Of a stretch of 64,000 nucleotides of DNA, positions 7,237 through 51,725 are shown piece by piece. The notes under the pieces were generated by a model. It saw only the letters and a program-made list of their open reading frames with translations. It ran no database searches and was not told the DNA's origin. Numbering within the stretch: position 1 is the stretch's first letter; each line of letters starts with the position of its first letter. The translations under genes were made by a program, and so were the position numbers. Source of the stretch: Eledone cirrhosa (Eukaryota); NCBI GenBank assembly GCA_964016885.1, contig OZ024742.1, positions 44,330,001 to 44,394,000 on the forward strand. The letters are read 5' to 3'.

Positions 7237-10200
7237 TCATCATCATTATCGTTTAACGTCCATGTTCGATGCTTGCATGGGTTTGGACGGGAGTTTTCCC
7301 ACTTGGAGCAAGAGTGGTTGTCTTGCTCGCATAGGACTGTCTGGCGGGTTTTCTACAGTTGGATGCCCTTCCTAACACCAACCACATTTACAGTGTGGGG
7401 CTGGGAGGTTTTTACCGTGTTGCCTACACGGCCACATTACAGCGTGGACTGTCTGGCAGGTTTTCTACAGCTGGATGCCCTTCCTAACACCAACCACATT
7501 TACAGTGTGGGACTGGGACGTTTTTACCGTGTTGCCTACACAGCCACATTACAGCGTGGACTGTGTGTTTTTTTTTTCGTGACACCTACACGATCTCATT
7601 TGTTTCGGCCTGGATTTTGTGGCACCAACATAACTTTACATTGAAAGGGGCGGTGTGGATGGGGTGGGGGTGGTGGGACAGGGGTGTATTTTGTTAGAGA
7701 TGCCTACTGACTGTAGTAGGTTTTACTTTGTATTTAGGTAATGCTGGTCTTCTCTGTTACTGAGTACCGCCAAAGGTCTCGGTCCAGTGACATTGTCTTG
7801 GAGAGGTGTAAGTGTGTGAGGTCGGAATTTATCAGCTCGTCCCAGGTTTTTCTGGGTCTGCCTACTCCGTGGCTACCATCTATCTTTATTGCCCTGCACT
7901 TTGTTATACAGCTGTCGTCTTTCATGCGCATCACGTGACCATACCAACGTAGCCTTCTCTCGAGTAAACAACATCTGATCCCTCTTATTTCTAATTTTTT
8001 CTCTTAGTTCATATATGCTTTGCCGTTCGCGTATATTACTATTACACATCCAGCGGAGCATGCAAGCTTCGTTCCTCTCTAGTCTGCGTATATCCTCTGC
8101 ACACAATGCCCAGGTCTCACTGCCATGCAACATTGCTGTTCGTATGCAGGCATCATACAACCTGCCTTTCACTTTTAGGGAGAACCCTTTAGCGGCTAAT
8201 AGTGGTATAAGCTCTCTGAACTTTTTCCATCCAGTTCTGACTCTAGCTACTGTACTTTCGGAGCACCCTCCCCCACTGCTGATTTTGTCACCCAGGTAAC
8301 GGAAGCTGTCCACTATTTCTATAGAACCCTCTGCGCAGTTGAAAGAGCTAGTATTTTGTGGGCACTTGCTGCTACTTATTGCACCAGAGCACCGGCCACA
8401 TGTAAAATCTGTGTTCTTAGTTAGCTTACCTGTGATCCCACTACATCTTTTATGCACCCATACTTTGCATTTGGGACATAAAATGGAGTTTCTACCTACG
8501 CCTTTCCTACACACTGAGCATGGCCATTTCCCGGAAGGGACCGGCACCTTATTTTCTTTCCTACAAACTAGAACTTTAGTCTTAGCCATGTTAATTTTAA
8601 GGCCTTTTGATTCTAAGCCGTGCTTCCATGTTTGGAATTTCTTCTCTAGCTCGGCCATTGATTCAGCTATGAGCGTTAGGTCATCTGCGTATAGGAGTTC
8701 CCATGGGCAGCCGGTCTTGAACTCCTCTGTTATAGCCTGAAGAGCAATAATGAATAGTAGGGGGCTAAGAACAGAGCCCTGATGGACACCAACTTTTACG
8801 CTAAACTCTTCACTATATTCGTTGTTAATTCTAACCTTGCTGACTGTTTCTTTATACATGGCTTGTATAGCTCTCACAAGCCATTCGTCAACACCTAGTT
8901 TTCTAAGAGCCCACCAGATAATGGAACGGGGGACTCTGTCGAAGGCTTTCTCCAAGTCAACAAAGGCTAAGTATAGGGGTTTACTTTTAGCTAGGTACTT
9001 CTCCTGTAGTTGTCGTACAATGAAAAGAGCGTCTGTGGTACTTTTACCTGACACAAACCCGAACTGCATTTCATCTAGATCAATTCGCTCTCTGATTAGT
9101 TGTGCTATTACTTTTTCCGTGACCTTCATGACCTGGTCGATTAATTTAATCCCTCTATAGTTACTCCTATCTAGGGCGTCTCCTTTACCCTTGTAACAGT
9201 TAATGATGATGCTGCTACGCCAGTCCTTCGGAACAACCCCATTCTATATGACTTGGTTTACTATCCGGGTGACCATGGTGTGTCCCACCGTTCCAGAGGC
9301 CTTCAGCATCTCAGCGACTATTTCCGAAGGCCCAGCCGCCTTACCCGTCTTCATATCTTTGATCGCCTTACTTATTATACTACCTTCAACTAACACTGCT
9401 GGTCCCTCTATTGGATCGATCTGGGGGAGACTATCCTTCTCCCATTTATTCTCCTCATTTAGTAGCCTCTCGTAGTGACACTTCCAAGCGACCTTCTTAT
9501 CAGCGTCAGTGATGGCGAGTACGCCATCATCATCTAGTACACACTTCTCCCCAACAATATCACGGTTTTCCTTGACACATTGCCTAGCAATCCTGAACAC
9601 CTCACGTTTTTGGTCCTCGCGTTGTAGAACATGCTTGAACTTTCTTTCCTCTGCTTCCCTTCTTGCGAAGTACACTTGTCTCCTAGCTTCCCTCCTGGCC
9701 ACTTGATAGTCTTCTCTACTTCCCCCATCCCGCCATATTTTCCAAGCCTGCTTTTTGGCCTTAATCGACTCCTCCACCTTACTGTTCCACCACCATGTTA
9801 CTCTCCTCCTGCCTATAGGCCTGCTCCGGCCACAGACTTCGTCTGCCGCCATCAGCAGGTTTGCTTTCAGGAATTCCCACTGTCCCTCTATATTGTCCGA
9901 CTCTAAATGCTCTTCCTTACTGTCGAAAGCGTCAAGTAATATGCTTTGAAATTTATTTCTGGCTGTGGGGTCCTTTAGCTTCCATATTTTTCTCCTGAGG
10001 ATAGTCCTCTTCTGCTGTCGAGTGCGTCTCGTCCTGTCTATGAGGTCGCTAATTATCAGTCTATGTTGGGAGGTGCATTCTTCATGGGGGAGGGATTTAG
10101 TGTTTACAACAGTCACTCTGTCACGTCTTCTGGTAAGGATATAATCTACCTGGCTGGTATGTTCCCCTGATCTGTAGCTGATCAAGTGATTGTCTCGTTT

Positions 10201-11425
10201 TTTGAAGTTAGTGTTACAGATTGTTAGGTTATTTGCGTCACAGAATTCCAGGATTCTGGAGCCTTCCTCATTTCTAGTACCAAACCCATAGCCTCCATGG
10301 ATTTCATCATAGCCATCACAATGTTGTCCAACGTGACCATTTAGGTCGCCAGCAATAATTATATAGTCACTGTCGGTTATTTGGGAGGTAGTGAGCATCA
10401 GTGTCTCATAGAAAGTGTCTTTTATAGCGCCAGGCAGTCCGGATTGGGGCGCGTACGCAGATATTATCGTCACAGTAGTTCTATTTAGAACAAGTCTTAT
10501 TTTAATTATTCTGTCGTTTACTTTATTTACGTCTATTATCTTATCCACCCATTTTTCTGCTAACATGATTCCTACCCCACCCAGCCCATTGTCATTTCCC
10601 ACCCAGAAAAGCTTATAGCATCGTTTTTTACCCACAATGAATCTAGCAGACCCGCCCCTCCACCTGGTCTCTTGGATGCAGCAGACATCAACCTCCTTAC
10701 GTTCAAGCATTTCTACAACCTCGTTTGAGCGGCCTTTTAAGGTCCCTACATTCATGGTACCAACTCTGAAGTTTTGGATTGCGTTTGGTGGGTGGGGTGC
10801 AGGGAGGGGTGTGGTTGATGGGGTTGGGGTTATGTTGGCCATCCGCGGCCGCAACAAAGAGGGTGGGGCTTTGCCCTTTCGTCCGGCAGCATGAGGTGAA
10901 TTTGTCGTTATCTTTTGCATTGTCTTCGGGTGTCCAGATTCTTCTGACTCTCCAGAAATTCCCTAGTTCACCCATCATATCGAACGGTGAGACAGAACAG
11001 AATTATAGAAAGCCAATTTTGAATACGATTTTTTGATTCTGGGGGATTGTAAGATATATAGATGAATGAACCGAATGTGGAGAGTTGAGAAGAAATGGAT
11101 ATGTACGTTACATTTCGTAGAAGAAAACTGAACAAGCGACCATCAATAATAGGAGACAAATTCTGGGTTTAGTCCCCTGTAGCATGGCTTATTTATATTT
11201 GGTTGGCAAGGAGTGAGGGGGAGTGTGAGACCAGCGTATATGATAGAGAGAGTGAGGGGGTGAGAGGCGATTTCAGCAGGCCAAGAGAGAGAGAGGGCAA
11301 TCCCTAATTTAACCTGGCATAATTTCTTTTTTCGGCCAAAATGGTTGCAGGAATATTATTTAGAATTGTAGAAAGACAAACAATTATGAACATGATTTTT
11401 TGATTCTGGGGGATTGTAAGATATA
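7237..11425 (-). mobile_element. Near full-length RTE-clade LINE (AP endonuclease + RT + Cys/His finger), disabled by one nonsense codon and one frameshift
   Basis: ORF 9244-10920 has the APE motifs VGTMNVGTL, IQETRW, AYAPQ, GDLNGH and SQHR; ORF 7873-9129 is in the same frame after a TAG at 9244-9246 and has the RT motifs QFGF, FVDLEKAFD, GVHQGSVLSP and YADD; frameshift near 7995; C-terminus GRPRKTW ends at 7734; ATC tail at ~7237; 5' limit approximate. Confidence 0.93.
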
Positions 11426-13172: not shown

Positions 13173-13412
13173 AGGATTCTTGTATGTATGACAATCGTGG
13201 CGTAACTTATGCTGGAAGTGTTAATGAATCCTTGAGCCGAACACGTTGCCTAAAATGGAAGAGCCTAAATGGAATAAGGAAAGATATGTTTCCTAATGGT
13301 GTTTATCCAGAGAACTACTGTCGCAATATCAACATGACAACTGGTTATTCTTCAAAGCCATGGTGTATGGTAGCATCGTCTAAATATGAAAATTGTAATA
13401 TTACAGTTTGTA
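13173..13412 (+). CDS. Internal exon encoding a kringle domain
   Basis: ccttag acceptor, gtaagt donor; 240 nt, phase 1-1; DSCMYDNRGVTYAGSVNESLSRTRCLKW...ENYCRN...KPWC...ENCNITVC has six Cys and the kringle motifs GxxYxG, CxxW, NYCRN and PWC. Confidence 0.9.
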
Positions 13413-14238: not shown

Positions 14239-14370
14239 AGTGTCCTGACTATTGGTTTGGAACTTCTTGCAGATATGAATGTCACTGTAGTAATAAGGAA
14301 GACTGTGATAGAAATGGTATCTGTAAGTTAGGTTGTGTTGCTGGCTGGACTGGACACAACTGCCAAAAAA
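14239..14370 (+). CDS. Internal exon, EGF-like module
   Basis: tttcag/gtaagt; 132 nt, phase 1-1; CPDYWFGTSCRYECHCSNKEDCDRNGICKLGCVAGWTGHNCQK. Confidence 0.9.
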
Positions 14371-16702: not shown

Positions 16703-16736
<34 letters not shown>

Positions 16737-17212
16737 TCATCACTACCACCATCACCATCATCATCACCGCCACCACCACCACCACCATCATCATCATCAC
16801 TACCACCATCACCATCGTCACCACCACCATCATCATCACTGCCACCACCATCATCATCATCATCACTACCACCATCGCCATAGTCCTCACCACCACCACC
16901 GTCATCATCACCGCCACCACCATCATCATCATCACTACCATCATCACCATCGTCAACACCATCATCTTCATCACCATTGTTGTAAGTACCACCATCGTCA
17001 TCATCACCATCCCTGTTGTCACTACCATTGACATTGTCATCAATATTGTCATAGACATCGTCATTATTATTATTATCATCATCATCATTGCCATCAGCAT
17101 CATCTTCATCATCATTGCTTTCATTACCATTGTTATTACCATCATCATCGTTATAGCCATCATCGTCACCATTGGGATTATTGATATTGTTATCATTGCC
17201 ATCATCATCATT
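16631..17212. repeat. Degenerate (CAT/CAC)n trinucleotide tract
   Basis: direct reading. Confidence 0.9.
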
Positions 17213-17342
17213 GACGAAAGTACAAAGGTGACCCGCCCTCCCAAAAAACAAATACAAAAAAAAACACAAACAAACAAACACAGGTAAACAAATGCCACCA
17301 GCGGCATTAGTGATGTTAGCTATGAAAAGATAAAATTGAATT

Positions 17343-17394
17343 CTTAAAATCAAAACGGCTCAGAATAAACTTAGTACAGATCAATGTTTTAGTA
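17343..17394 (+). mobile_element. Left remnant of the RTE LINE that hosts the 51-bp satellite
   Basis: translates LKSKRLRINLVQINVLV(SR), homologous to LESKGLKINMAKTKVLVCR of the LINE at 7237-11425. Confidence 0.7.
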
Positions 17395-20300
17395 AGTAGA
17401 GGACAAGACTCTGATAGCAGCAGGGATATGGCCATGTTTGATGTAGAAAGAGGACAAGACTCTAATAGCAGCAGGGATATGGCCATGTTTGATGTAGGAA
17501 GAGGACAAGACTCTGATAGCAGCAGGGATATGGCCATGTTTGATGTAGGTAGAGGACAAGACTCTGATAGCAGCAGGGATATGGCCATGTTTGATGTAGA
17601 AAGAGGACAAGACTCTGATAGCAGCAGGGATATGGCCATGTTTGATGTAGAAAGAGGACAAGACTCTGATAGCAGCAGGGATATGGCCATGTTTGATGTA
17701 GAAAGAGGACAAGACTCTAATAGCAGCAGGGACATGGCCATGTTTGATGTAGAAAGAGGACAAGACTCTGATAGCAGCAGGGATATGGCCATGTTTGATG
17801 TAGGAAGAGGACAAGACTCTGATAGCAGCAGGGATATGGCCATGTTTGATGTAGAAAGAGGACAAGACTCTAATAGCAGCAGGGACATGGCCATGTTTGA
17901 TGTAGAAAGAGGACAAGACTCTGATAGCAGCAGGGATATGGCCATGTTTGATGTAGGAAGAGGACAAGACTCTGATAGCAGCAGGGATATGGCCATGTTT
18001 GATGTAGGTAGAGGACAAGACTCTGATAGCAGCAGGGATATGGCCATGTTTGATGTAGAAAGAGGACAAGACTCTGATAGCAGCAGGGATATGGCCATGT
18101 TTGATGTAGAAAGAGGACAAGACTCTGATAGCAGCAGGGATATGGCCATGTTTGATGTAGAAAGAGGACAAGACTCTAATAGCAGCAGGGACATGGCCAT
18201 GTTTGATGTAGAAAGAGGACAAGACTCTGATAGCAGCAGGGATATGGCCATGTTTGATGTAGGAAGAGGACAAGACTCTGATAGCAGCAGGGATATGGCC
18301 ATGTTTGATGTAGAAAGAGGACAAGACTCTAATAGCAGCAGGGACATGGCCATGTTTGATGTAGAAAGAGGACAAGACTCTGATAGCAGCAGGGATATGG
18401 CCATGTTTGATGTAGGAAGAGGACAAGACTCTGATAGCAGCAGGGATATGGCCATATTTGATGTAGAAAGAGGACAAGACTCTGATAGCAGCAGGGACAT
18501 GGCCATGTTTGATGTAGAAAGAGGACAAGACTCTGATAGCAGCAGGGATATGGCCATGTTTGATGTAGAAAGAGGACAAGACTCTGATAGCAGCAGGGAC
18601 ATGGCCATGTTTGATGTAGAAAGAGGACAAGACTCTGATAGTAGCAGGGATATGGCCATGTTTGATGTAGAAAGAGGACAAGACTCTGATACCAGCAGGG
18701 ATATGGCCATGTTTGATGTAGAAAGAGGACAAGACTCTAATAGCAGCAGGGATATGGCCATGTTTGATGTAGGAAGAGGACAAGACTCTGATAGTAGCAG
18801 GGATATGGCCATGTTTGATGTAGAAAGAGGACAAGACACTGATAGCAGCAGGGATATGGCCATGTTTGATGTAGAAAGAGGACAAGACACTGATAGCAGC
18901 AGGGACATGGCCATGTTTGATGTAGAAAGAGGACAAGACTCTGATAGTAGCAGGGATATGGCCATGTTTGATGTAGAAAGAGGACAAGACTCTAATAGCA
19001 GCAGGGACATGGCCATGTTTGATGTAGAAAGAGGACAAGACTCTGATAGCAGCAGGGACATGGCCATGTTTGATGTAGAAAGAGGACAAGACTCTGATAG
19101 TAGCAGGGATATGGCCATGTTTGATGTAGAAAGAGGACAAGACTCTAATAGCAGCAGGGACATGGCCATGTTTGATGTAGAAAGAGGACAAGACTCTGAT
19201 AGCAGCAGGGACATGGCCATGTTTGATGTAGAAAGAGGACAAGACTCTGATAGTAGCAGGGATATGGCCATGTTTGATGTAGAAAGAGGACAAGACTCTG
19301 ATACCAGCAGGGACATGGCCATGTTTGATGTAGAAAGAGGACAAGACTCTGATAGCAGCAGGGACATGGCCATGTTTGATGTAGAAAGAGGACAAGACTC
19401 TGATAGCAGCAGGGACATGGCCATGTTTGATGTAGAAAGAGGACAAGACTCTGATAGCAGCAGGGATATGGCCATGTTTGATGTAGAAAGAGGACAAGAC
19501 TCTAATAGCAGCAGGGACATGGCCATGTTTGATGTAGGTAGAGGACAAGACTCTGATAGCAGCAGGGATATGGCCATGTTTGATGTAGAAAGAGGACAAG
19601 ACTCTGATACCAGCAGGGACATGGCCATGTTTGATGTAGAAAGAGGACAAGACTCTGATAGCAGCAGGGATATGGCCATGTTTGATGTAGAAAGAGGACA
19701 AGACTCTGATAGCAGCAGGGATATGGCCATGTTTGATGTAGAAAGAGGACAAGACTCTGATAGCAGCAGGGATATGGCCATGTTTGATGTAGAAAGAGGA
19801 CAAGACTCTGATACCAGCAGGGATATGGCCATGTTTGATGTAGGTAGAGGACAAGACTCTGATAGCAGCAGGGATATGGCCATGTTTGATGTAGGTAGAG
19901 GACAAGACTCTGATAGCAGCAGGGATATGGCCATGTTTGATGTAGAAAGAGGACAAGACTCTGATAGCAGCAGGGATATGGCCATGTTTGATGTAGAAAG
20001 AGGACAAGACTCTGATACCAGCAGGGATATGGCCATGTTTGATGTAGGTAGAGGACAAGACTCTGATAGCAGCAGGGATATGGCCATGTTTGATGTAGGT
20101 AGAGGACAAGACTCTGATAGCAGCAGGGATATGGCCATGTTTGATGTAGGTAGAGGACAAGACTCTGATACCAGCAGGGATATGGCCATGTTTGATGTAG
20201 AAAGAGGACAAGACTCTGATACCAGCAGGGATATGGCCATGTTTGATGTAGAAAGAGGACAAGACTCTGATAGCAGCAGGGATATGGCCATGTTTGATGT

Positions 20301-23300
20301 AGAAAGAGGACAAGACTCTGATACCAGCAGGGATATGGCCATGTTTGATGTAGAAAGAGGACAAGACTCTGATACCAGCAGGGATATGGCCATGTTTGAT
20401 GTAGGTAGAGGACAAGACTCTGATAGCAGCAGGGATATGGCCATGTTTGATGTAGGTAGAGGACAAGACTCTGATAGCAGCAGGGATATGGCCATGTTTG
20501 ATGTAGGTAGAGGACAAGACTCTGATACCAGCAGGGATATGGCCATGTTTGATGTAGAAAGAGGACAAGACTCTGATACCAGCAGGGATATGGCCATGTT
20601 TGATGTAGAAAGAGGACAAGACTCTGATAGCAGCAGGGATATGGCCATGTTTGATGTAGAAAGAGGACAAGACTCTGATAGCAGCAGGGATATGGCCATG
20701 TTTGATGTAGAAAGAGGACAAGACTCTGATAGTAGCAGGGATATGGCCATGTTTGATGTAGAAAGAGGACAAGACTCTGATACCAGCAGGGATATGGCCA
20801 TGTTTGATGTAGAAAGAGGACAAGACTCTGATACCAGCAGGGATATGGCCATGTTTGATGTAGGTAGAGGACAAGACTCTGATAGCAGCAGGGATATGGC
20901 CATGTTTGATGTAGGTAGAGGACAAGACTCTGATAGCAGCAGGGATATGGCCATGTTTGATGTAGGTAGAGGACAAGACTCTGATACCAGCAGGGATATG
21001 GCCATGTTTGATGTAGGTAGAGGACAAGACTCTGATACCAGCAGGGATATGGCCATGTTTGATGTAGAAAGAGGAGAAGACTCTAATAGCAGCAGGGATA
21101 TGGCCATGTTTGATGTAGAAAGAGGACAAGACTCTGATACCAGCAGGGATATGGCCATGTTTGATGTAGAAAGAGGACAAGACTCTGATAGCAGCAGGGA
21201 TATGGCCATGTTTGATGTAGGTAGAGGACAAGACTCTGATAGCAGCAGGGATATGGCCATGTTTGATGTAGGTAGAGGACAAGACTCTGATACCAGCAGG
21301 GATATGGCCATGTTTGATGTAGAAAGAGGAGAAGACTCTAATAGCAGCAGGGATATGGCCATGTTTGATGTAGAAAGAGGACAAGACTCTGATACCAGCA
21401 GGGATATGGCCATGTTTGATGTAGAAAGAGGACAAGACTCTGATAGCAGCAGGGATATGGCCATGTTTGATGTAGGTAGAGGACAAGACTCTGATACCAG
21501 CAGGGATATGGCCATGTTTGATGTAGAAAGAGGACAAGACTCTGATAGCAGCAGGGATATGGCCATGTTTGATGTAGAAAGAGGACAAGACTCTGATACC
21601 AGCAGGGATATGGCCATGTTTGATGTAGAAAGAGGACAAGACTCTGATACCAGCAGGGATATGGCCATGTTTGATGTAGAAAGAGGACAAGACTCTGATA
21701 GCAGCAGGGATATGGCCATGTTTGATGTAGAAAGAGGACAAGACTCTGATACCAGCAGGGACATGGCCATGTTTGATGTAGAAAGAGGACAAGACTCTGA
21801 TAGCAGCAGGGATATGGCCATGTTTGATGTAGGTAGAGGACAAGACTCTGATAGCAGCAGGGATATGGCCATGTTTGATGTAGGAAGAGGACAAGACTCT
21901 GATACCAGCAGGGATATGGCCATGTTTGATGTAGAAAGAGGACAAGACTCTGATACCAGCAGGGATATGGCCATGTTTGATGTAGAAAGAGGAGAAGACT
22001 CTAATAGCAGCAGGGATATGGCCATGTTTGATGTAGAAAAGAACAAGACTCTGATACCAGCAGGGATATGGCCATGTTTGATGTAGAAAGAGGACAAGAC
22101 TCTGATAGCAGCAGGGATATGGCCATGTTTGATGTAGAAAGAGGACAAGACTCTGATAGTAGCAGGGATATGGCCATGTTTGATGTAGGAAGAGGACAAG
22201 ACTCTGATAGTAGCAGGGATATGGCCATGTTTGATGTAGAAAGAGGACAAGACTCTGATAGTAGCAGGGATATGGCCATGTTTGATGTAGAAAGAGGACA
22301 AGACTCTGATAGCAGCAGGGATATGGCCATGTTTGATGTAGGAAGAGGACAAGACTCTGATAGTAGCAGGGATATGGCCATGTTTGATGTAGGAAGAGGA
22401 CAAGACTCTGATAGTAGCAGGGATATGGCCATGTTTGATGTAGAAAGAGGACAAGACTCTGATAGCTGCAGGGATATGGCCATGTTTGATGTAGGAAGAG
22501 GACAAGACTCTGATAGCTGCAGGGATATGGCCATGTTTGATGTAGGAAGAGGACAAGACTCTGATACCAGCAGGGATATGGCCATGTTTGATGTAGGAAG
22601 AGGACAAGACTCTGATAGCAGCAGGGATATGGCCATGTTTGATGTAGAAAGAGGACAAGACTCTGATACCAGCAGGGATATGGCCATGTTTGATGTAGAA
22701 AGAGGACAAGACTCTGATACCAGCAGGGATATGGCCATGTTTGATGTAGAAAGAGGACAAGACTCTGATACCAGCAGGGATATGGCCATGTTTGATGTAG
22801 GAAGAGGACAAGACTCTGATACCAGCAGGGATATGGCCATGTTTGATGTAGAAAGAGGACAAGACTCTGATACCAGCAGGGATATGGCCATGTTTGATGT
22901 AGGAAGAGGACAAGACTCTGATACCAGCAGGGATATGGCCATGTTTGATGTAGAAAGAGGACAAGACTCTGATACCAGCAGGGATATGGCCATGTTTGAT
23001 GTAGAAAGAGGACAAGACTCTAATTGCAGCAGGGATATGGCCATGTTTGATGTAGAAAGAGGACAAGACTCTGATACCAGCAGGGATATGGCCATGTTTG
23101 ATGTAGAAAGAGGACAAGACTCTAATTGCAGCAGGGATATGGCCATGTTTGATGTAGAAAAGGACAAGACTCTGATACCAGCAGGGATATGGCCATGTTT
23201 GATGTAGAAAGAGGACAAGACTCTGATAGCAGCAGGGATATGGCCATGTTTGATGTAGAAAGAGGACAAGACTCTGATACCAGCAGGGACATGGCCATGT

Positions 23301-26300
23301 TTGATGTAGAAAGAGGACAAGACTCTGATAGTAGCAGGGATATGGCCATGTTTGACGTAGAAAGAGGACAAGACTCTCATAGCAGCAGGGATATGGCCAT
23401 GTTTGATGTAGAAAGAGGACAAGACTCTGATAGTAGCAGGGATATGGCCATGTTTGATATGTAGAAAGAGGACAAGACTCTGATAGTAGCAGGGATATGG
23501 CCATGTTTGATATGTAGAAAGAGGACAAGACTCTGATAGTAGCAGGGATATGGCCATGTTTGATGTAGAAAGAGGACAAGACTCTGATAGCAGCAGGGAT
23601 ATGGCCATGTTTGATGTAGAAAGAGGACAAGACTATGATAGTAGCAGGGATATGGCCATGTTTGATGTAGAAAGAGGACAAGACTCTGATAGTAGCAGGG
23701 ATATGGCCATGTTTGATATGTAGAAAGAGGACAAGACTCTGATAGTAGCAGGGATATGGCCATGTTTGATATGTAGAAAGAGGACAAGACTCTGATAGTA
23801 GCAGGGATATGGCCATGTTTGATGTAGAAAGAGGACAAGACTCTGATAGCAGCAGGGATATGGCCATGTTTGATGTAGAAAGAGGACAAGACTCTAATAG
23901 CAGCAGGGATATGGCCATGTTTGATGTAGAAAGAGGACAAGACTCTAATAGCAGCAGGGATATGGCCATGTTTGATGTAGAAAGAGGACAAGACTCTGAT
24001 ACCAGCAGGGATATGGCCATGTTTGATGTAGAAAGAGGACAAGACTCTGATAGCAGCAGGGATATGGCCATGTTTGATGTAGTAAGAGTACAAGACTCTG
24101 ATACCAGCAGGGATATGGCCATGTTTGATGTAGAAAGAGGACAAGACTCTGATAGTAGCAGGGATATGGCCATGTTTGATGTAGAAAGAGGACAAGACTC
24201 TGATAGTAGCAGGGATATGGCCATGTTTGATGTAGGAAGAGGACAAGACTCTGATACCAGCAGGGATATGGCCATGTTTGATGTAGAAAGAGGACAAGAC
24301 TCTGATAGTAGCAGGGATATGGCCATGTTTGATGTAGAAAGAGGACAAGACTCTGATACCAGCAGGGATATGGCCATGTTTGATGTAGAAAGAGGACAAG
24401 ACTCTGATAGTAGCAGGGTTATGGCCATGTTTGATGTAGAAAGAGGACAAGACTCTGATACCAGCAGGGATATGGCCATGTTTGATGTAGAAAGAGGACA
24501 AGACTCTGATACCAGCAGGGATATGGCCATGTTTGATGTAGAAAGAGGACAAGACACTGATAGCAGCAGGGATATGGCCATGTTTGATGTAGAAAGAGGA
24601 CAAGACTCTGATAGCAGCAGGGATATGGCCATGTTTGATGTAGGAAGAGGACAAGACTCTGATAGTAGCAGGGATATGGCCATGTTTGATGTAGAAAGAG
24701 GACAAGACTCTAATAGCAGCAGGGATATGGCCATGTTTGATGTAGAAAGAGGACAAGACACTGATAGCAGCAGGGATATGGCCATGTTTGATGTAGAAAG
24801 AGGAGAAGACTCTAATAGCAGCAGGGATATGGCCATGTTTGATGTAGAAAAGAACAAGACTCTGATAGCAGCAGGGACATGGCCATGTTTGATGTAGAAA
24901 GAGGACAAGACTCTGATAGCAGCAGGGATATGGCCATGTTTGATGTAGAAAGAGGACAAGACTCTGATAGCAGCAGGGATATGGCCATGTTTGATGTAGA
25001 AAGAGGACAAGACTCTGATAGCAGCAGGGATATGGCCATGTTTGATGTAGAAAGAGGACAAGACTCTAATAGCAGCAGGGATATGGCCATGTTTGATGTA
25101 GAAAGAGGACAAGACTCTAATAGCAGCAGGGATATGGCCATGTTTGATGTAGAAAGAGGACAAGACTCTGATAGCAGCAGGGATATGGCCATGTTTGATG
25201 TAGAAAGAGGACAAGACTCTGATAGCAGCAGGGATATGGCCATGTTTGATGTAGAAAGAGGACAAGACTCTGATAGCAGCAGGGATATGGCCATGTTTGA
25301 TGTAGAAAGAGGACAAGACTCTGATAGCAGCAGGGATATGGCCATGTTTGATGTAGAAAGAGGACAAGACTCTGATAGCAGCAGGGATATGGCCATGTTT
25401 GATGTAGAAAGAGGACAAGACTCTGATAGCAGCAGGGATATGGCCATGTTTGATGTAGAAAGAGGACAAGACTCTGATAGTAGCAGGGATATGGCCATGT
25501 TTGATGTAGAAAGAGGACAAGACTCTGATAGCAGCAGGGATATGGCCATGTTTGATGTAAAAAGAGGACAAGACTCTGATAGCAGCAGGGATATGGCCAT
25601 GTTTGATGTAGAAAGAGGACAAGACTCTGATACCAGCAGGGATATGGCCATGTTTGATGTAGAAAGAGGACAAGACTCTGATAGCAGCAGGGATATGGCC
25701 ATGTTTGATGTAGAAAGAGGACAAGACTCTAATAGCAGCAGGGATATGGCCATGTTTGATGTAGAAAGAGGACAAGACTCTGATAGCAGCAGGGATATGG
25801 CCATGTTTGATGTAGAAAGAGGACAAGACTCTGATACCAGCAGGGACATGGCCATGTTTGATGTAGAAAGAGGACAAGACTCTAATAGCAGCAGGGATAT
25901 GGCCATGTTTGATGTAGAAAGAGGACAAGACTCTGATAGTAGCAGGGATATGGCCGTGTTTGATGTAGAAAGAGGACAAGACTCTGATAGCAGCAGGGAT
26001 ATGGCCATGTTTGATATGTAGAAAGAGGACAAGACTCTGATACCAGCAGGGATATGGCCATGTTTGATGTAGAAAGAGGACAAGACTCTGATACCAGCAG
26101 GGATATGGCCATGTTTGATGTAGAAAGAGGAGAAGACTCTGATACCAGCAGGGATATGGCCATGTTTGATGTAGAAAGAGGAGAAGACTCTAATAGCAGC
26201 AGGGATATGGCCATGTTTGATGTAGAAAGAGGACAAGACTCTGATAGCAGCAGGGATATGGCCATGTTTGATGTAGAAAGAGGACAAGACTCTGATATCA

Positions 26301-29300
26301 GCAGGGATATGGCCATGTTTGATGTAGAAAGAGGACAAGACTCTGATAGTAGCAGGGATATGGCCATGTTTGATGTAGAAAGAGGACAAGACTCTGATAG
26401 TAGCAGGGATATGGCCATGTTTGATGTAGAAAGAGGACAAGACTCTGATATCAGCAGGGATATGGCCATGTTTGATGTAGAAAGAGGACAAGACTCTGAT
26501 ATCAGCAGGGATATGGCCATGTTTGATGTAGAAAGAGGACAAGACTCTGATAGTAGCAGGGATATGGCCATGTTTGATGTAGAAAGAGGACAAGACTCTG
26601 ATATCAGCAGGGATATGGCCATGTTTGATGTAGAAAGAGGACAAGACTCTGATAGCAGCAGGGATATGGCCATGTTTGATGTAGAAAGAGGACAAGACTC
26701 TGATAGTAGCAGGGATATGGCCACGTTTGATGTAGAAAGAGGACAAGACTCTAATAGTAGCAGGAATATGGCCATGTTTGATATGTAGAAAGAGGACAAG
26801 ACTCTGATAGCAGCAGGGATATGGCCATGTTTGATGTAGAAAAGAACAAGACTCTGATACCAGCAGGGATATGGCCATGTTTGATGTAGGAAGAGGACAA
26901 GACTCTGATACCAGCAGGGATATGGCCATGTTTGATGTAGAAAGAAGACAAGACTCTGATAGCAGCAGGGATATGGCCATGTTTGATATCTAGAAAGAGG
27001 ACAAGACTCTGATAGCAGCAGGGATATGGCCATGTTTGATGTAGAAAGAGGACAAGACTCTGATAGTAGCAGGAATATGGCCATGTTTGATATGTAGAAA
27101 GAGGACAAGACTCTGATAGCAGCAGGGATATGGCCATGTTTGATGTAGAAAAGAACAAGACTCTGATACCAGCAGGGATATGGCCATGTTTGATGTAGGA
27201 AGAGGACAAGACTCTGATACCAGCAGGGATATGGCCATGTTTGATGTAGAAAGAAGACAAGACTCTGATAGCAGCAGGGATATGGCCATGTTTGATATCT
27301 AGAAAGAGGACAAGACTCTGATAGCAGCAGGGATATGGCCATGTTTGATGTAGAAAGAGGACAAGACTCTGATAGTAGCAGGGATATGGCCATGTTTGAT
27401 GTAGAAAGAAGACAAGACTCTGATAGCAGCAGGGATATGGCCATGTTTGATATCTAGAAAGAGGACAAGACTCTGATAGCAGCAGGGATATGGCCATGTT
27501 TGATGTAGAAAGAAGACAAGACTCTGATAGCAGCAGGGATATGGCCATGTTTGATGTAGAAAGAGGACAAGACTCTGATAGTAGCAGGGATATGGCCATG
27601 TTTGATGTAGAAAGAGGACAAGACTCTGATAGTAGCAGGGATATGGCCATGTTTGATGTAGGAAGAGGACAAGACTCTGATACCAGCAGGGATATGGCCA
27701 TGTTTGATGTAGAAAGAGGACAAGACTCTGATAGTAGCAGGGATATGGCCATGTTTGATGTAGAAAGAGGACAAGACTCTGATACCAGCAGGGATATGGC
27801 CATGTTTGATGTAGAAAGAGGACAAGACTCTGATAGTAGCAGGGTTATGGCCATGTTTGATGTAGAAAGAGGACAAGACTCTGATACCAGCAGGGATATG
27901 GCCATGTTTGATGTAGAAAGAGGACAAGACTCTGATACCAGCAGGGATATGGCCATGTTTGATGTAGAAAGAGGACAAGACACTGATAGCAGCAGGGATA
28001 TGGCCATGTTTGATGTAGAAAGAGGACAAGACTCTGATAGCAGCAGGGATATGGCCATGTTTGATGTAGGAAGAGGACAAGACTCTGATAGTAGCAGGGA
28101 TATGGCCATGTTTGATGTAGAAAGAGGACAAGACTCTAATAGCAGCAGGGATATGGCCATGTTTGATGTAGAAAGAGGACAAGACACTGATAGCAGCAGG
28201 GATATGGCCATGTTTGATGTAGAAAGAGGAGAAGACTCTAATAGCAGCAGGGATATGGCCATGTTTGATGTAGAAAAGAACAAGACTCTGATAGCAGCAG
28301 GGACATGGCCATGTTTGATGTAGAAAGAGGACAAGACTCTGATAGCAGCAGGGATATGGCCATGTTTGATGTAGAAAGAGGACAAGACTCTGATAGCAGC
28401 AGGGATATGGCCATGTTTGATGTAGAAAGAGGACAAGACTCTGATAGCAGCAGGGATATGGCCATGTTTGATGTAGAAAGAGGACAAGACTCTAATAGCA
28501 GCAGGGATATGGCCATGTTTGATGTAGAAAGAGGACAAGACTCTAATAGCAGCAGGGATATGGCCATGTTTGATGTAGAAAGAGGACAAGACTCTGATAG
28601 CAGCAGGGATATGGCCATGTTTGATGTAGAAAGAGGACAAGACTCTGATAGCAGCAGGGATATGGCCATGTTTGATGTAGAAAGAGGACAAGACTCTGAT
28701 AGCAGCAGGGATATGGCCATGTTTGATGTAGAAAGAGGACAAGACTCTGATAGCAGCAGGGATATGGCCATGTTTGATGTAGAAAGAGGACAAGACTCTG
28801 ATAGCAGCAGGGATATGGCCATGTTTGATGTAGAAAGAGGACAAGACTCTGATAGCAGCAGGGATATGGCCATGTTTGATGTAGAAAGAGGACAAGACTC
28901 TGATAGTAGCAGGGATATGGCCATGTTTGATGTAGAAAGAGGACAAGACTCTGATAGCAGCAGGGATATGGCCATGTTTGATGTAAAAAGAGGACAAGAC
29001 TCTGATAGCAGCAGGGATATGGCCATGTTTGATGTAGAAAGAGGACAAGACTCTGATACCAGCAGGGATATGGCCATGTTTGATGTAGAAAGAGGACAAG
29101 ACTCTGATAGCAGCAGGGATATGGCCATGTTTGATGTAGAAAGAGGACAAGACTCTAATAGCAGCAGGGATATGGCCATGTTTGATGTAGAAAGAGGACA
29201 AGACTCTGATAGCAGCAGGGATATGGCCATGTTTGATGTAGAAAGAGGACAAGACTCTGATACCAGCAGGGACATGGCCATGTTTGATGTAGAAAGAGGA

Positions 29301-31707
29301 CAAGACTCTAATAGCAGCAGGGATATGGCCATGTTTGATGTAGAAAGAGGACAAGACTCTGATAGTAGCAGGGATATGGCCGTGTTTGATGTAGAAAGAG
29401 GACAAGACTCTGATAGCAGCAGGGATATGGCCATGTTTGATATGTAGAAAGAGGACAAGACTCTGATACCAGCAGGGATATGGCCATGTTTGATGTAGAA
29501 AGAGGACAAGACTCTGATACCAGCAGGGATATGGCCATGTTTGATGTAGAAAGAGGAGAAGACTCTGATACCAGCAGGGATATGGCCATGTTTGATGTAG
29601 AAAGAGGAGAAGACTCTAATAGCAGCAGGGATATGGCCATGTTTGATGTAGAAAGAGGACAAGACTCTGATAGCAGCAGGGATATGGCCATGTTTGATGT
29701 AGAAAGAGGACAAGACTCTGATATCAGCAGGGATATGGCCATGTTTGATGTAGAAAGAGGACAAGACTCTGATAGTAGCAGGGATATGGCCATGTTTGAT
29801 GTAGAAAGAGGACAAGACTCTGATAGTAGCAGGGATATGGCCATGTTTGATGTAGAAAGAGGACAAGACTCTGATATCAGCAGGGATATGGCCATGTTTG
29901 ATGTAGAAAGAGGACAAGACTCTGATATCAGCAGGGATATGGCCATGTTTGATGTAGAAAGAGGACAAGACTCTGATAGTAGCAGGGATATGGCCATGTT
30001 TGATGTAGAAAGAGGACAAGACTCTGATATCAGCAGGGATATGGCCATGTTTGATGTAGAAAGAGGACAAGACTCTGATAGCAGCAGGGATATGGCCATG
30101 TTTGATGTAGAAAGAGGACAAGACTCTGATAGTAGCAGGGATATGGCCACGTTTGATGTAGAAAGAGGACAAGACTCTAATAGTAGCAGGAATATGGCCA
30201 TGTTTGATATGTAGAAAGAGGACAAGACTCTGATAGCAGCAGGGATATGGCCATGTTTGATGTAGAAAAGAACAAGACTCTGATACCAGCAGGGATATGG
30301 CCATGTTTGATGTAGGAAGAGGACAAGACTCTGATACCAGCAGGGATATGGCCATGTTTGATGTAGAAAGAAGACAAGACTCTGATAGCAGCAGGGATAT
30401 GGCCATGTTTGATATCTAGAAAGAGGACAAGACTCTGATAGCAGCAGGGATATGGCCATGTTTGATGTAGAAAGAGGACAAGACTCTGATAGTAGCAGGA
30501 ATATGGCCATGTTTGATATGTAGAAAGAGGACAAGACTCTGATAGCAGCAGGGATATGGCCATGTTTGATGTAGAAAAGAACAAGACTCTGATACCAGCA
30601 GGGATATGGCCATGTTTGATGTAGGAAGAGGACAAGACTCTGATACCAGCAGGGATATGGCCATGTTTGATGTAGAAAGAAGACAAGACTCTGATAGCAG
30701 CAGGGATATGGCCATGTTTGATATCTAGAAAGAGGACAAGACTCTGATAGAAGCAGGGATATGGCCATGTTTGATGTAGAAAGAGGACAAGACTCTGATA
30801 GTAGCAGGGATATGGCCATGTTTGATGTAGAAAGAAGACAAGACTCTGATAGCAGCAGGGATATGGCCATGTTTGATATCTAGAAAGAGGACAAGACTCT
30901 GATAGCAGCAGGGATATGGCCATGTTTGATGTAGAAAGAAGACAAGACTCTGATAGCAGCAGGGATATGGCCATGTTTGATATCTAGAAAGAGGACAAGA
31001 CTCTGATAGCAGCAGGGATATGGCCATGTTTGATGTAGAAAGAGGACAAGACTCAATAGCAGCAGGGATATGGCCATGTTTGATGTAGAAAAGAACAAGA
31101 CTCTGATACCAGCAGGGATATGGCCATGTTTGATGTAGAAAGAGGACAAGACTCTGATAGCAGCAGGGATATGGCCATGTTTGATATCTAGAAAGAGGAC
31201 AAGACTCTGATAGCAGCAGGGATATGGCCATGTTTGATGTAGAAAGAGGACAAGACTCTGATAGCAGCAGGGATATGGCCATGTTTGATGTAGAAAGAGG
31301 ACAAGACTCTGATAGCAGCAGGGATATGGCCATGTTTGATGTAGAAAGAGGACAAGACTCTGATAGCAGCAGGGATATGGCCATGTTTGATGTAGAAAGA
31401 GGACAAGACTCTGATAGCAGCAGGGATATGGCCATGTTTGATGTAGAAAGAGGACAAGACTCTGATAGCAGCAGGGATATGGCCATGTTTGATGTAGAAA
31501 GAGGACAAGACTCTGATACCAGCAGGGATATGGCCATGTTTGATGTAGAAAGAGCTCAAGACTCTGATAGTAGCAGGGATATGGCCATGTTTGATGTAGA
31601 AAGGGGACAAAACTCTGATAGCAGCAGGGATATGGCCATGTTTGATGTAGAAAGAGGACAAGACTCGGACACCAGCAGGAATATGGCCATGTTTAATATG
31701 TAGAAAA
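17395..31707. repeat. 14.3-kb satellite of ~280 units of 51 bp (GTAGAAAGAGGACAAGACTCTGATAGCAGCAGGGATATGGCCATGTTTGAT), derived from an RTE LINE
   Basis: direct reading; the ATACCAGC variant matches the reverse complement of the LINE segment at ~49349-49403 at 45 of 51 aligned bases. Confidence 0.97.
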
Positions 31708-32120
31708 GAAGTTGGTATGAATTTTATATGATGTACACAAATGTAAAATATCATTATACAAGAGGTGTAGTGGGATACCATACAGGCAAACAGAAAAAGT
31801 AGTCTTTGTATGTGTAGATACATAAGGATAATTGGTATTAAAAAACTTTTTCAATGCAGGGAAGGTTCCATATAGGTGGTTACCTAGATGATCTAATTAG
31901 CAGTAGAGGAGGTTGTTCTGAAAGCATAGTAGCTAGAATAAGAACAGGATGAAAAAAGTTCAGGGAGCTATTGCCACTTTTGACAACAAAGGGATTTTCT
32001 CTCTGAGTGAATGGCAGATTGTGCAAAGTACAATGCTGCATAATAGTGGGACTTCGGCAGTAATTGAACAGGATATGCAAAGACTGGACAGAAATGAATT
32101 GTGCATGCTCTGATGGATGT
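31708..32120 (+). mobile_element. Right remnant of the host RTE LINE
   Basis: reads (WPCLICRK)EVGMNF...KRCSGI...ISSRGGCSESIVARIRTG*KKFRELLPLLTTKGFSL...RLDRNE..ML*WM, colinear with the other RTE copies. Confidence 0.85.
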
Positions 32121-32124
32121 TTAA

Positions 32125-32345
32125 CCTTTTAGCATTTACATTACTCTATATTTACTTTTGTATTTTCACGGTAAACATTATTTCACATAATTATCTCACA
32201 TAATAGCAAATCTATGAGATTTTGATATTTATTTATCTTGAGAACAATACCATAACATCAGTATGAGCAGTTGGTTATAGCTGGTTCAAAAAGGAAAAAG
32301 GTGAGAGAATTCTGGCTGGATACAGCTGGCTTAAATACTGTAAGG
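32125..32345. mobile_element. piggyBac-like MITE with TTAA target duplication, inserted in the RTE remnant
   Basis: ttaa|ccttttagcattta ... taaatactgtaagg|ttaa; homologous to 60352-60572. Confidence 0.7.
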
Positions 32346-32624
32346 TTAAAGCTAGTGCGCATGACCACATCTTATACCCAGTTTTTTCTTTCAGCTCATC
32401 CATGCTTTTTCATTCATTACACTTCCATCAGAATATTCTTAACTTGTTTGTGTCCAGCCTTTGCACTCTCCATGTCTCACTCCCATATAACAATACATTT
32501 CACTTGCAGGCATCTCACAATCTGCCTTTTGTATAATAAAACCAGTGATTATAGTTGTACATTCTAAGATTGATACCATTTGTATTTTAAACTTCGCTGA
32601 ATTGCATTGTTTTTATTTTTGTAG

Positions 32625-32759
32625 GATGTAAGAGTGGAACATATGGAGAAAGCTGCCGTAAGAAGTGTGGTAATTGTGAAAATAATAGTTGCAACCCAAA
32701 ATCTGGTGAATGTGAACAATCTTGTAGAGCTGGTTACACAGGAAAACATTGTGATAAAT
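32625..32759 (+). CDS. Internal exon, EGF-like module (not in the ORF track)
   Basis: ttttgtag/gtaagt; 135 nt, phase 1-1; CKSGTYGESCRKKCGNCENNSCNPKSGECEQSCRAGYTGKHCDK. Confidence 0.9.
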
Positions 32760-33809
32760 GTAAGTTGGACAATGGTTTGTTAAAGTAATAAATGTATGCA
32801 CACACATACACATAAATTCTTTTCTATGTGAGTGTATGGAATTATGGATGACTGCATGTATGTGAATGTCTATATATTTGTGTGTATATATATATATATA
32901 TATACACACGTGTGTGTGTGTGTATATATACATCATCATCATCATCATTTAACGTCCATCTTCCATGCTAACATGGGTTAGATGGGTTTGTCCCATTTAG
33001 AGGCAAGTTGGGTCATGTATGCATGTACGTGTATGCATGTACACATGTAAGCACACACATATGGGTACATATATATATGTGTACATCCCTATACACTAAT
33101 CAGCCACCCCTACCCATCCTCACAAACACCTATAACTTAATAACTATATCTCTTCTGTATTGCTCCGTCCCTAGACTAAGAGGGCTCTAAGTTGGGCCTA
33201 TGACAAACAACCTCTCGAGTGATGGTGCCATGAAAATCCACTTGGTACACTCCATATGGGTGGTTGGCGATAGGGAGGGCACCTCGTTGTAGAAACCATG
33301 CTTAAAAAGGTTGAGAGGACACTTTAGCTGTATCAAAGACACAACAACCGCTCTAGTGTTGGTGATCTACATGATAAACACACTCAGTACACACAGTAAA
33401 GTGGTTGGTGATAGGAAGGGCATCTTGCTGTAGAAAGCATGCCAAACAAGGGGTTGGGAGGATCCTTCATTTTGGGTCAAAAGACAAGACAACTTTTCCT
33501 CTGCACTTGATAATAACCATACATAAGAGGGGTACAAACCTCCTCGGCCTGTCTGGGATGTCAGTGACCCCGCTTGAGTACTGCCTTGGTCAATGTAGAC
33601 CCATGCAACCTTTGCAAGCTGGGAAAGCTTATGTTAAATGATGATGCTATATATGCATGTATATGTGTAAGTATATTATATATACTAGCAGAAAAACCGC
33701 CCTGGGTGGTTTTCTGTTAGCATATGTAGTGTGCATATTGGTTTTATATGCAAATATGGATGCTTATAGATATGATATGTAAATTGAAAAGTAAATTGAA
33801 AATATCTTC

Positions 33810-42437: not shown

Positions 42438-42484
<47 letters not shown>

Positions 42485-47985: not shown

Positions 47986-48992
47986 ATATATATATATATA
48001 TCTATATATATATATATATATACATATACACATATATACATATAACGAAGGAATTGTGGTAAGGAACTAGATGGACCATAACGCACGAAAGTACTCAATA
48101 CTTAGGGTAGTAGAGTGGGTAATAGGAACAAGTATGATCCCGACGGCAGAGCTCAAGCCGTTTCGACAGCTGTTTCTGGACTAAATAAGAATTTTTAGCC
48201 TGGTAAATAGGTAAATAAATAGCCGAACTTCTCAGGGGGTATTTCCTTATATGGGAAGATAGTAATTGTCAAGAGGATTGGTCAAAAATTTGTTGTAAAG
48301 ACAGATAAATCTATCATGGCATTTGGTGGGAGGTAGGGGTGGCTGAACTTGCCAGTAGAACAAAGAGGGAGTGGGAGAAACCCAGTCAAGCGTTGAAAGT
48401 GAAATCTATACAGCATATTCTAAGGATAGTGTATAAAAGGTCGAAAAAAGTGTACTGGAGAAGAGGGGGGGGGGGGGTAGTTGAAAGAATAGGTAAATTG
48501 AAAGGGAGTAAAAAAACACTGCTACTATAGATAGTTAGTAATCAGCCAATGCTATCTTACAATGACAGGTTAATAAGTTGAGAATGAAAATACTAAAATA
48601 CTACTACAGAGATACTAATACAAAATATTAATACAAAAATACTAATACAAAAATACCACTAAGAAATTTAGAAACCATAGAAATGAAGCAGCAACCAAGC
48701 AACCAGAAAGAAAAAAAATTACTGGGGTCTAACACATCTGCTATAAAAAGCGTGATCATCCAATCCTATCTTAAAATTAGGGGTAGGGGGTACTGAGGCT
48801 ACAGAGGGCCGATGGGCTGCAATCGGGGTAGGCGAAAGGTGAAAAAAAGACGAGGAAGGAGATCTGGGGTGGAAGGACTAGGAAGAGATGGCGGGAAGAA
48901 GGAAACATAGAGGAAACGATAAAAAAGTTACGTCTACCTTTGTAAGCAGGGGTTACCCCTTACAAAATCGGCAAGTGGAGGGTATCGGCCCT

Positions 48993-51725
48993 TGTCATCA
49001 TATAACCGGCCTTTCGTACGCAGGGAGAAACCCTTCTTCGTCAACAGAGGAAGCAGCTCCCTAAACTTCTTCCAACCCGTCCTTATTCTAGATACTATGG
49101 CCTCGGAACACCCCCCTGCCATGCTAATCTGATCTAGGTACCGGAAGCTATCCACCACTTCTATAGCACCCGCCTGCATTTGAAAAATGTGTCTATCAAT
49201 GCGACTTCTACTGTCTAATTTCCCTGTACATCTAGTGCATACATATTTCTCCCTACCTGTTAGTTTGCCTGCTATCCCACTACATCTCTTGTGTACCCAG
49301 GATCTGCATTGTGTGCATTTTATAGAATTTATGCGAGTTCCTTTTCTGCATATCGAACATGGCCATTTCCCTGACGGAATCAGAGTTTTGTCCTCTTTTC
49401 TACTCATCAACACTTTTGTCTTAGCTAGGTTCACTCTCAGTCCTCTTGTTTCCAACTGCTGTTTCCAGAGCCGGAATTTATTCTCTAGCTCCTCTACTGA
49501 TTCTGCTATAAGAACCAGATCATCAGCATAGAGAAGTTCCCATGGACAGCCAGTCTTAAACTCCTCTGTTATGGTTTGGAGGACTATAATGAACAAGAGC
49601 GGGCTGAGGACTGAACCTACTTGTATCTGGAATTCTCATTTTACTGACAGCTCTTCTGTACATAGCTTGCACTGTCCTCACAAGCCATTCCTCTACACCT
49701 AGTTTCCTTAGGGACCATCAGATGACAGATCAGGGTACCCTATCAAAGGCCTTCTCTAGGTCAACAAAGGCTAAGTATAGTGGCTTATTTTTCTCTAAGA
49801 ACCTCTTTTGTAATTGTCTCACCAAGAAGAGGGCATCTGTTGTACTCTTCCCAGGCACAAAACCAAACTGCATCTCATCTAGTTTGACCCTTTCTCTAAT
49901 TAGTTGTGTTAATATCCTTTCTGCCACTTTCATAACCTGATCCATCAGTTTTATACCCCTATAGTTGCTCCTCTCCAGAGCATCTCCTTTACCTTTGTAG
50001 CAATTTATGAGAATACTGTTGCACCAGTCTTTGGGTATGACACCACCATAAATAGCCTGATTGATGATGCGTGCAACCAGTTTAGTGCCTACGTCCCCTG
50101 ATGCCTTCAGCATCTCAGCAACTATCCCTGATGGTCCAGCAGTCTTACCATTTTTCATTTCCTTAATAGCCTCTTGGACCCTATATTCGTCAATCTCAAT
50201 AGCTGGTCCCTCTGTCGGATCTACTGAGGGTAATTTCTCTCTCTCCCATTTGTTCTCCACATTCATCAGTCTCTCATAATGACATTTCCAGGTCTTCTTT
50301 TTCTGGTCATTCGTGACACTAAGTACACCGGCATCATTCAGGACACATTTATCTCCAACAACATCCTGATTTGCATTGACACACTGCCTTGCAATGTGGA
50401 ACACCGCATGCCTCTGATCTTCCCGTCGCAGAACATTGACAAACCTTCTACTCTCAGCCTCCCTGCGTGCTAAGTACACCTGACGTCTAGCTTCTCTCTT
50501 AGCGGCTGTATATCCTTCTCTACTCCCACCCTTTTTCCAAGCCTTCCATGCTAGTCTTTTGTCTCTAATAGCCTTATCTACTGTGCTGTTCCACCACCAG
50601 GTCACTCTCTGTCTGGTTGGAGCTTTGCTCCAGCCACAAGTTTCATCAGTAGCCTGCAGTAAGTTGTCACGTAAGAAATTCCAGTTATTATCTATGCCAT
50701 ACGTCTCTAAATCGTTTTCTTTTTCGTCATACACATCTTGAAGGGCTTTACTAAATTTGTATTTTAGTGAAAGGACTTTTAGCTTCCAGACCTTTCTTCT
50801 CCACACCTTCCTGTATGTCTCATTCCATATCTTGCTTACTGAGATATCACTAACAACTAACCTATGCTGTGGGGTACATTCTTCCCCAGGGTATGCTTTG
50901 GTATTAGACACTATCTGCCAGTCCCGCTGCCTAACTAGTAAGAAGTCAATCTGGCTTATGTGCTCGCCAGATTTGTATGTTATTAGGTGGTTGGCAGGTT
51001 TCTGGAAGTTAGTGTTGCAAATAGTCAGTGTACTTGCATCACAAAATTCAAGAAGTCTCACTCCTTCTTCATTTCTTGAGCCGTAACCGTGCCCACCATG
51101 TACCCCAGTGTAACCATCCGGGAGCTGTCCAACATGACCATTGAAGTCTCCTGCTAGAATAACGATGTCTCCGTCCTCTGTCATTGCGGTTGTTTGTAAA
51201 AGTTGCTCGTAAAAGCAGTCTTTCTCTTCTTTGCCTAGGCCTGCTTGGGGAGCATAGGCCGAGATGATTGTCAGTAGTCTCCTGCCTACAACTAATCTAA
51301 GCTTAATTTTTCGATTACTAACTCGAACTACCTCTATTGTCTTATTGATCCATCTCTCAGCCAGGAAAATGCCTACTCCCCTAAACCATCATCCTTACCT
51401 ACCCAGAAAAGCTTATAGCTAAGATGTTTGCCTACGACTAGTCTCGCAGAGGCACCTCTCCAACTCACCTCTTGCATGCAGCACACATTCACATGCCTTC
51501 TCTCCAGCATCTCCGCTATTTCAGCAGATGTACCTCTGAGAGTGCCAACATTAAGTGTTGCAACTCTGAGATGCGACGTCTTCATATTTTGTTGTTCCTA
51601 TGTACTTGTTGCTGTGCTAATAATCATTTTGGCATTGATACACTGGGTGGATGCCCTTCCTAACACCAGCGCCACTTTACAGAATGAACTGGGTGCTTTT
51701 ATTTGTGCCACCAGCACTAGAGAGG
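48993..51725 (-). mobile_element. RTE LINE, second subfamily (APE + RT + Cys/His finger), frameshifted and 3'-truncated
   Basis: ORFs 51373-51585, 49730-51184 and 48934-49596 are colinear with the LINE at 7237-11425. Confidence 0.92.

Follow-up and report, generated by a model that had tools for sequence, protein, structure and literature searches.

Tandem repeats that derive from transposons are well documented. Among human minisatellites, 23% are transposon-derived, nearly all are confined to one locus (5,747 of 5,932 clusters), expansion is described as local, and 300 of 7,276 are flanked by direct repeats of 5–20 bp (PMC3389668). Microhomology-mediated duplication is considered a general and mostly neutral source of tandem repeats (PMC13167724), and satellites derived from long interspersed nuclear elements (LINEs) include chicken HinfI (CR1), Phodopus PROsat (L1 ORF2, the second open reading frame (ORF)), and the cetacean common satellite (L1 3' end) (PMC9659126). 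We analyzed a stretch of 64,000 nucleotides from Eledone cirrhosa (contig OZ024742.1, positions 44,330,001–44,394,000; referred to as the window, in which all coordinates are given unless stated otherwise) that contains a 14-kb tandem array of 280 units of ~51 bp. The unit is a LINE fragment, and we estimate a probability of roughly 0.88 that this single-locus array arose in place inside an old truncated LINE copy. This reading was adopted because of the colinear flanks, the single genomic locus, and the presence of both junctions in short-read contigs, and it agrees with a preliminary description of this DNA, which had proposed an origin within one LINE copy.

Unit parsing divided 17398–31705 into 252 units of 51 bp, 18 of 53 bp, eight of 50 bp, and two of 49 bp, and Tandem Repeats Finder (TRF) called 17398–31694 with a period of 51, 279.8 copies, and 96% matches. 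Fifty distinct unit sequences were found among the 280 units, and 67 units were identical to the consensus. The 252 51-bp units diverged by 2.1% from the consensus and by 3.7% pairwise, and the GC content of the unit was 0.43–0.46. The unit corresponds to the linker between the reverse transcriptase (RT) domain and the PHD finger of the LINE, with the first two cysteines of the finger lying within the amplified unit. It showed 43 of 51 identities, with a 2-nt gap, to the linker of a LINE copy at 49 kb in the window, which replaces the previously claimed 45 of 51 (at ~49.35–49.40 kb), and 84–89% identity to other LINE copies. A pattern for the one-copy site was found at 4,567 places in the genome. 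The array falls within the definition of Ahmed and Liang (units of at least 20 bp, GC content of at least 40%, similarity of at least 95% among units, and at least 70% similarity to or overlap with a transposon), the last point by virtue of the 43/51 identity and the LINE on both sides.

The host LINE was colinear on both sides of the ~280 copies, as the preliminary description had stated. The left flank alone (17330–17396) aligned to a paralogue (L046) with a score of 80, compared with a maximum of 40 in 300 shuffles; L046 was retrieved with a query that contained the left flank. For the right flank, ~410 bp were aligned at 68–72% to the best full-length paralogous matches. The two flanks were placed separately on 59 paralogous loci (excluding L051, which is a duplicate, L066–L069, and the loci of the array itself), and the best left-flank match lay 45–70 nt before the right-flank start in 38 of them, with a mode of 57 nt (20 loci). 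In the collapsed host, 52 nt separated the flank placements, and this shorter spacing was due to a 5-nt deletion at the host left junction. The left flank alone was not significant on the 49-kb LINE (its score was reached in 99 of 1000 shuffles), and thus closer paralogues were required. The flank translations quoted earlier (LKSKRLRINLVQINVLVSR, WPCLICRKEVGMNF, KRCSGI, and GGCSESIVARIRTG) were all found, in different frames.

A unit-junction pattern allowing up to one mismatch gave 230 matches in the 3.0-Gb genome, all 230 of which were in the window array. A looser junction pattern gave 216 matches in the genome and 211 in the window, compared with two for the reversed-pattern control; the five outside matches were not inspected. 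The other 39 listed matches of a 4-unit query were single stretches of 56–74 bp at 84–89%. Within the assembled DNA, the array occupied a single locus, and as one 14-kb locus in a predicted intron, it differs from a classical satellite family, which has long arrays at several loci that are typically heterochromatic. The left junction was present in a short-read contig of run X2 covering 17287–17427 with one difference, and the right junction in a contig of the same run covering 31686–31910 with two differences. An array formed elsewhere, at another locus or on an extrachromosomal circle, and integrated by homologous recombination would likewise have colinear flanks, and some young-subfamily copies resemble the unit more (42–43 of 51 ungapped columns) than do the best left-flank copies (32–38 of 51); the five uninspected matches also leave some room for it. 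However, the young copies were picked by searching with the unit itself, no second array was present in the assembly, and the terminal unit, a diverged one that runs directly into the right flank, has two family-atypical bases (G23 and T30) in common with all other units. We consider such an integration very improbable and retain the origin in place.

Exact repeats were found within the array at lags of 259, 309, 357, 459, and 3,426 bp, which indicates that the array grew in blocks of 5–67 units. The preliminary description had attributed the array to one event; it is better explained by one seed and many subsequent block duplications. The 67-unit block may have been duplicated recently in the genome itself, or its second copy may be an assembly artefact. 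The complete identity of its copies over 3,220 bp, with zero differences, would be expected if the length of a real array had been inflated by misassembly, notably by this 3,426-bp duplication. Block duplication is evidently a natural process at this locus, as smaller nested duplications are also present, and the short-read depth, although weak evidence, also speaks against inflation: a cyclic 81-nt unit contig had a depth of 1039, as opposed to 8.2–9.6 for three near-identical single-copy contigs, giving a ratio of 108–127, and from the assembled array, 126 copies of the average consensus word are expected (94 without the 67-unit block). The depth supports an array of the assembled order of size as weak, order-of-magnitude evidence, and we regard inflation by misassembly as improbable.

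The two ends of the array differed. Unit 1 was identical to the consensus, and unit 280 differed from the 53-bp variant at five of 53 positions, of which three were private, one was ambiguous, and one was ancestral. G23 and T30 were common to all units; thus, both predate the seed. The seed looks considerably older than the internal diversity of 2–4%, judging from small numbers of sequence differences, and later homogenisation looks to have spared the right edge. The diverged last unit thus points to an old seed, and the locus would be the birthplace of the array rather than its birth caught in progress.

These end differences would also be expected from polar growth directed away from the right end, one unit at a time, as the right terminal unit is diverged and carries ancestral bases (AT and C20) and unit 1 is the consensus. 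The preliminary description had proposed directional expansion from LINE-like variants occurring only from ~23450 rightward. The 53-bp variant was indeed limited to 23453–31180 (18 copies, units 119–270), the GT-junction variant was limited to units 3–87, and polar change has been described for minisatellites (PMC3389668). However, six of the 18 53-bp variants sit 3,426 bp from another and are copies made by the block duplication, which inflates the right-hand enrichment, and the second variant named, GACAAAACT, was present in one copy only (31606) and was non-ancestral, since the family majority at that position is G, not A (41 of 55). The ancestral C20 was found in 66 units spread over units 26–277, densest in the second fifth, and never together with AT in any of the 279 internal units; AT could be secondary dinucleotide slippage. 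Position and ancestral-state count showed no gradient (rho 0.07, p 0.22), and the same test without one copy of the 67-unit block gave rho 0.12 and p 0.09. The distance between units increased only from 1.6 differences at lag 1 to 1.9 at lag 250. Variant maps were used rather than a unit tree, as 50 types that lie 1–3 sites apart and are block-shuffled would not resolve. In the one allele analyzed, edge asymmetry was seen and an ancestral-state gradient was not; we therefore do not uphold directional expansion and consider polar growth rather unlikely compared with growth by blocks.

In the LINE family, AGTAG(G/A)AAAGAG and TGTAGAAAAGG enclose the amplified segment at a distance of 54 nt, and the array ends coincide with this family direct repeat, which is of a kind rare at that spacing. 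Direct repeats matching at 8 of 9 positions with 54-nt spacing were found at one of 2,540 and seven of 2,830 positions in the two window LINE copies; the single position need not be the array-end site. The family majority at the 5' site is AGTAGGAAAGAG, with G in 34 of 55 copies and A in 14. The 5' microhomology AGTAGAAAAGAG given in the preliminary description came from a paralogue and had no match in the host, where the left junction is AGTAAGTAGAGG and lacks 5 nt relative to the family. For seeding between two microhomology sites 54 nt apart, the observations are mixed: the family direct repeat GTAG(G/A)AAAG is present, but the host 5' arm carries the 5-nt deletion, the array period is 51/53, and a 53-bp register is equally economical. 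In a 54-bp route, intact arms would pair, all junctions would lose one base, and the left junction would separately lose five. In a 53-bp route, the deletion would come first and the GTA of both sites would align; a crossover after GTAGAA would reproduce the common junction TGTAGAAAGAGG exactly, and one after GTAG would yield the variant TGTAGGTAGAGG, which was found in 19 left-hand units. The 53-bp register accounts for the junctions as economically as the 54-bp register, and the data do not separate the two routes. Microhomology seeding of the array is probable, and its location at the GTAG(G/A)AAAG direct repeat is plausible rather than demonstrated. A duplication hot spot at the direct repeat was rejected for pattern-fitting junctions, as exact 54-bp junctions gave zero matches genome-wide compared with the 4,567 single-copy sites found with the positive-control pattern.

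We infer the following course of events. An RTE-like LINE fragment would have inserted into the intron and decayed, with G23 and T30 arising before the seed. The 53–54-bp segment between the GTAG(G/A)AAAG-like sites was then probably duplicated by slippage or repair, and unequal exchange or template switching would have copied blocks of 5, 6, 7, 9, and 67 units. The interior would have been homogenised, and the right terminal unit would have dropped out of this process and drifted. The 18-kb predicted intron would thereby have been inflated neutrally, and no function is predicted.

Several observations weigh against an origin in place. The left LINE remnant is only ~55 bp long, and the identities of the left and right flanks were uncorrelated across paralogues (rho 0.13, p 0.35, n = 53), so that this comparison does not show a shared subfamily. 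Direct repeats matching at 8 of 9 positions are common at spacings of 20–100 nt (49 and 46 per LINE copy), the seeding register is not directly readable because the host 5' site is without 5 nt, and the exact 54-bp junction did not occur elsewhere. Regarding depth, two other single-copy contigs (6.3 and 3.9) give ratios of 165 and 267, contig depth is no copy number, and run X2 may be the assembly's own sample. A one-unit allele or an orthologue was not seen in the contigs of related organism A (run X1) or in the restriction-site-associated DNA (RAD) runs X5 and X6 of organism B. The organism A contigs, which show presence only, contained the neighboring exon, no unit contig at 95% or more, no high-depth unit contig, and, among the listed pieces, no orthologous LINE remnant; this pattern is a hint, but no proof, that the array is lineage-restricted. 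In X5 and X6, 0 of 167 and 0 of 173 reads reached 95%, and the differences and loose ends listed for these reads match LINE paralogues; with reduced-representation libraries, a missing sequence is no proof of absence.

The array lies in the predicted intron 14371–32624, which is 18,254 bp long, and makes up 78% of it, in line with the earlier claim that it supplies most of an 18-kb intron. The phase of the exon predicted downstream matches that of the upstream exon, and a contig of a related organism matches 32505–32799 with 23 differences. The exon structure of the host gene is a prediction from sequence and profile matches. Its location within a predicted intron, in sense orientation and at 78% of the intron length, could be taken to suggest that selection maintains the array, perhaps in the role of a spacer or of a splicing regulator of the kringle/EGF gene. 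However, many unrelated arrays occur in the same intron and region, and in organism A, the exon is present among the contigs described above and the unit is not seen at 95% or more or at high depth. Maintenance by selection is extremely unlikely in our view, and neutral growth in place is preferred. The coordinates of the features are given in Table 1.

Table 1. Features of the host locus and of related LINE copies in the window.
Feature	Position	Strand	Evidence
Second paralogous LINE copy (endonuclease, RT, PHD)	7876..10962	-	Open stretches of 572 and 456 aa, both in one frame
Predicted kringle exon, same host gene	13175..13412	+	Pfam PF00051, E 2.6e-9, above cut-off
Predicted upstream EGF-like exon, donor GTAAGT at 14371	14241..14370	+	Pfam DSL, E 8e-4, below curated cut-off
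Left remnant of host LINE (end of RT domain), LINE sequence recognisable from 17343 on, 5-nt junction deletion relative to family	17343..17397	+	44/50 to paralogue L046
Tandem array, 280 units, 51-bp consensus, from LINE RT-to-PHD-finger linker	17398..31705	+	TRF, parsing, junction search
67-unit (3,426-bp) block, two copies	24105..30750	+	3,220 bp identical: 24105-27324 = 27531-30750
Terminal unit, ancestral AT and C20 kept	31653..31705	+	5/53 differences from 53-bp variant
Right remnant of host LINE, from the PHD finger onward; decayed (stops, frameshifts)	31706..32115	+	Paralogue matches
Very high-copy short element ending the LINE remnant, TTAA-CCCT-like ends	32120..32345	.	82.6% to 60347-60579
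Predicted downstream EGF-like exon, acceptor AG at 32623-32624	32625..32759	+	Pfam EGF_laminin, E 6e-4, just below cut-off
Younger paralogous LINE copy (endonuclease, RT, PHD; broken), reference copy of the preliminary description	48937..51388	-	Pfam, sequence comparison

Further exons of this plus-strand gene, which has kringle and repeated EGF-like modules, were predicted at ~770–916, ~57725–57865, ~60700–60850, and ~62500–62660. The same predicted intron contains an 18-bp array of 99 copies (CACCACCGCCATCGTCCT) at 14922–16629, which grades into a CAC/CAT microsatellite, and together with the main array, tandem repeats fill ~90% of the predicted intron. A 40-bp array of 19 copies was found at 35526–36278, with no source found in the window or the retrieved loci, and a segment of ~520 bp was present in about four tandem copies at 42398–44069 (TRF rows at 42398, 42918, 43438, and 43960). 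The short element at 32120–32345, a candidate piggyBac-type miniature inverted-repeat transposable element, had a summed short-read depth of >10^6 and many loose ends at 32120 and 32336. What appears to be an inverted piece of this LINE family is located at ~32380–32520, just before the exon (49 bp at 75% by BLAST).

In the 7876–10962 copy of the LINE family, Exo_endo_phos and RVT_1 share one frame, split by one stop. A PHD finger directly follows the RT, with PF00628 above cut-off in 48937–49635 (-) and 7876–9243 (-). The RTE label of the host LINE was taken from the preliminary description, and it fits the architecture of the predicted domains. The octopus RTE LINE RTE-2_OV has a single ORF of ~1,100 aa with endonuclease, RT, and zinc finger (PMC9115989), and the longer copies in the window are alike in this respect; the likeness is one of architecture, and the finger of RTE-2_OV is given as C2H2 in that source, whereas the finger of the window LINE is PHD by Pfam.

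Three further, independent in-place duplications were found in the same LINE family, at another short direct repeat (GTACACAA). In L066 (753–2233; L065/L066, contig C12, ~20061752–20063232), an old copy contains 46 units of 32 bp, the LINE resumes to the right of the array, apparently after a short deletion, and all 32 matches of its pattern (32/32) were at that one locus. L068 and L069 (contigs C5 and C18; ~1480–1531) carry 20-bp duplications of 2–3 copies at the GTACACAA repeat with colinear flanks. The short element at 32120–32345 and 60347–60579 also terminates the LINE remnant of L066, at another site and in the other orientation. Set against a known one-copy ancestor, these loci form a series of seeds (2–3 copies), a 46-copy array, and the 280-copy array. 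L068 and L069 were obtained with a targeted pattern, and the recurrence loci, not being a random sample, give no rate. Other minisatellites in the 59 loci (L026, L028, L035, and L038) and the 40-bp array of the window showed no convincing match to the two LINE copies, and two of these arrays match other dispersed repeats. The proposition that single-locus arrays have arisen from this LINE family again and again in this genome, making it a nursery for them, is tentative and somewhat doubtful. If true, it would offer thousands of natural replicates for asking which short direct repeats seed arrays and what share of intron size in this lineage arises in place.

Among titles and abstract openings, we found none on this array or on cephalopod LINE-derived arrays; the repeat-annotation supplements of PMC13282606 may bear on it. 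Transposon-derived single-locus repeats are already in print, and the array is an unusually long and legible instance of a well-documented process. It resembles human transposon-derived minisatellites in its transposon source, its single locus, and its local duplication, but the human cases mostly have 2–3 units (Alu means of 2.3–2.4) (PMC3389668), whereas this array has 280 units over 14 kb and consists of LINE coding sequence in an invertebrate. In the Haber–Louis model (Wei et al. 2026, PMC13167724), a single-copy segment between short direct repeats likewise duplicates and expands, mostly neutrally; here, the 5' arm is inferred from paralogues because of the 5-nt deletion, and the expansion went far beyond a doublet. 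As in satellites from LINE ORFs, the monomer is a LINE piece, in some of those cases from an ORF; those cases are satellite families (PMC9659126), whereas the array described here stays within its parent LINE copy, whose sequence is legible on either side. Retrotransposon-internal arrays in Lathyrus (PMC7004042) and in maize CRM (PMC3648361) also sometimes reach satellite length and show block-like higher-order structure. The plant elements, however, are long terminal repeat (LTR) elements, and in Lathyrus, a short array is already present in the mobile element and expands near centromeres (PMC7004042), whereas in this LINE family the unit is single-copy (4,567 sites), and the array is situated within a predicted intron. 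The locus illustrates that amplification in place can supply most of an 18-kb predicted intron with no function indicated, and it is likely to be a hypervariable marker. In most long arrays, the ancestor is lost and the origin is unreadable; here, the one-copy state in thousands of paralogues and the intact flanks allow the seed, the old mutations, and the block duplications to be ordered, which makes the array a good teaching case.

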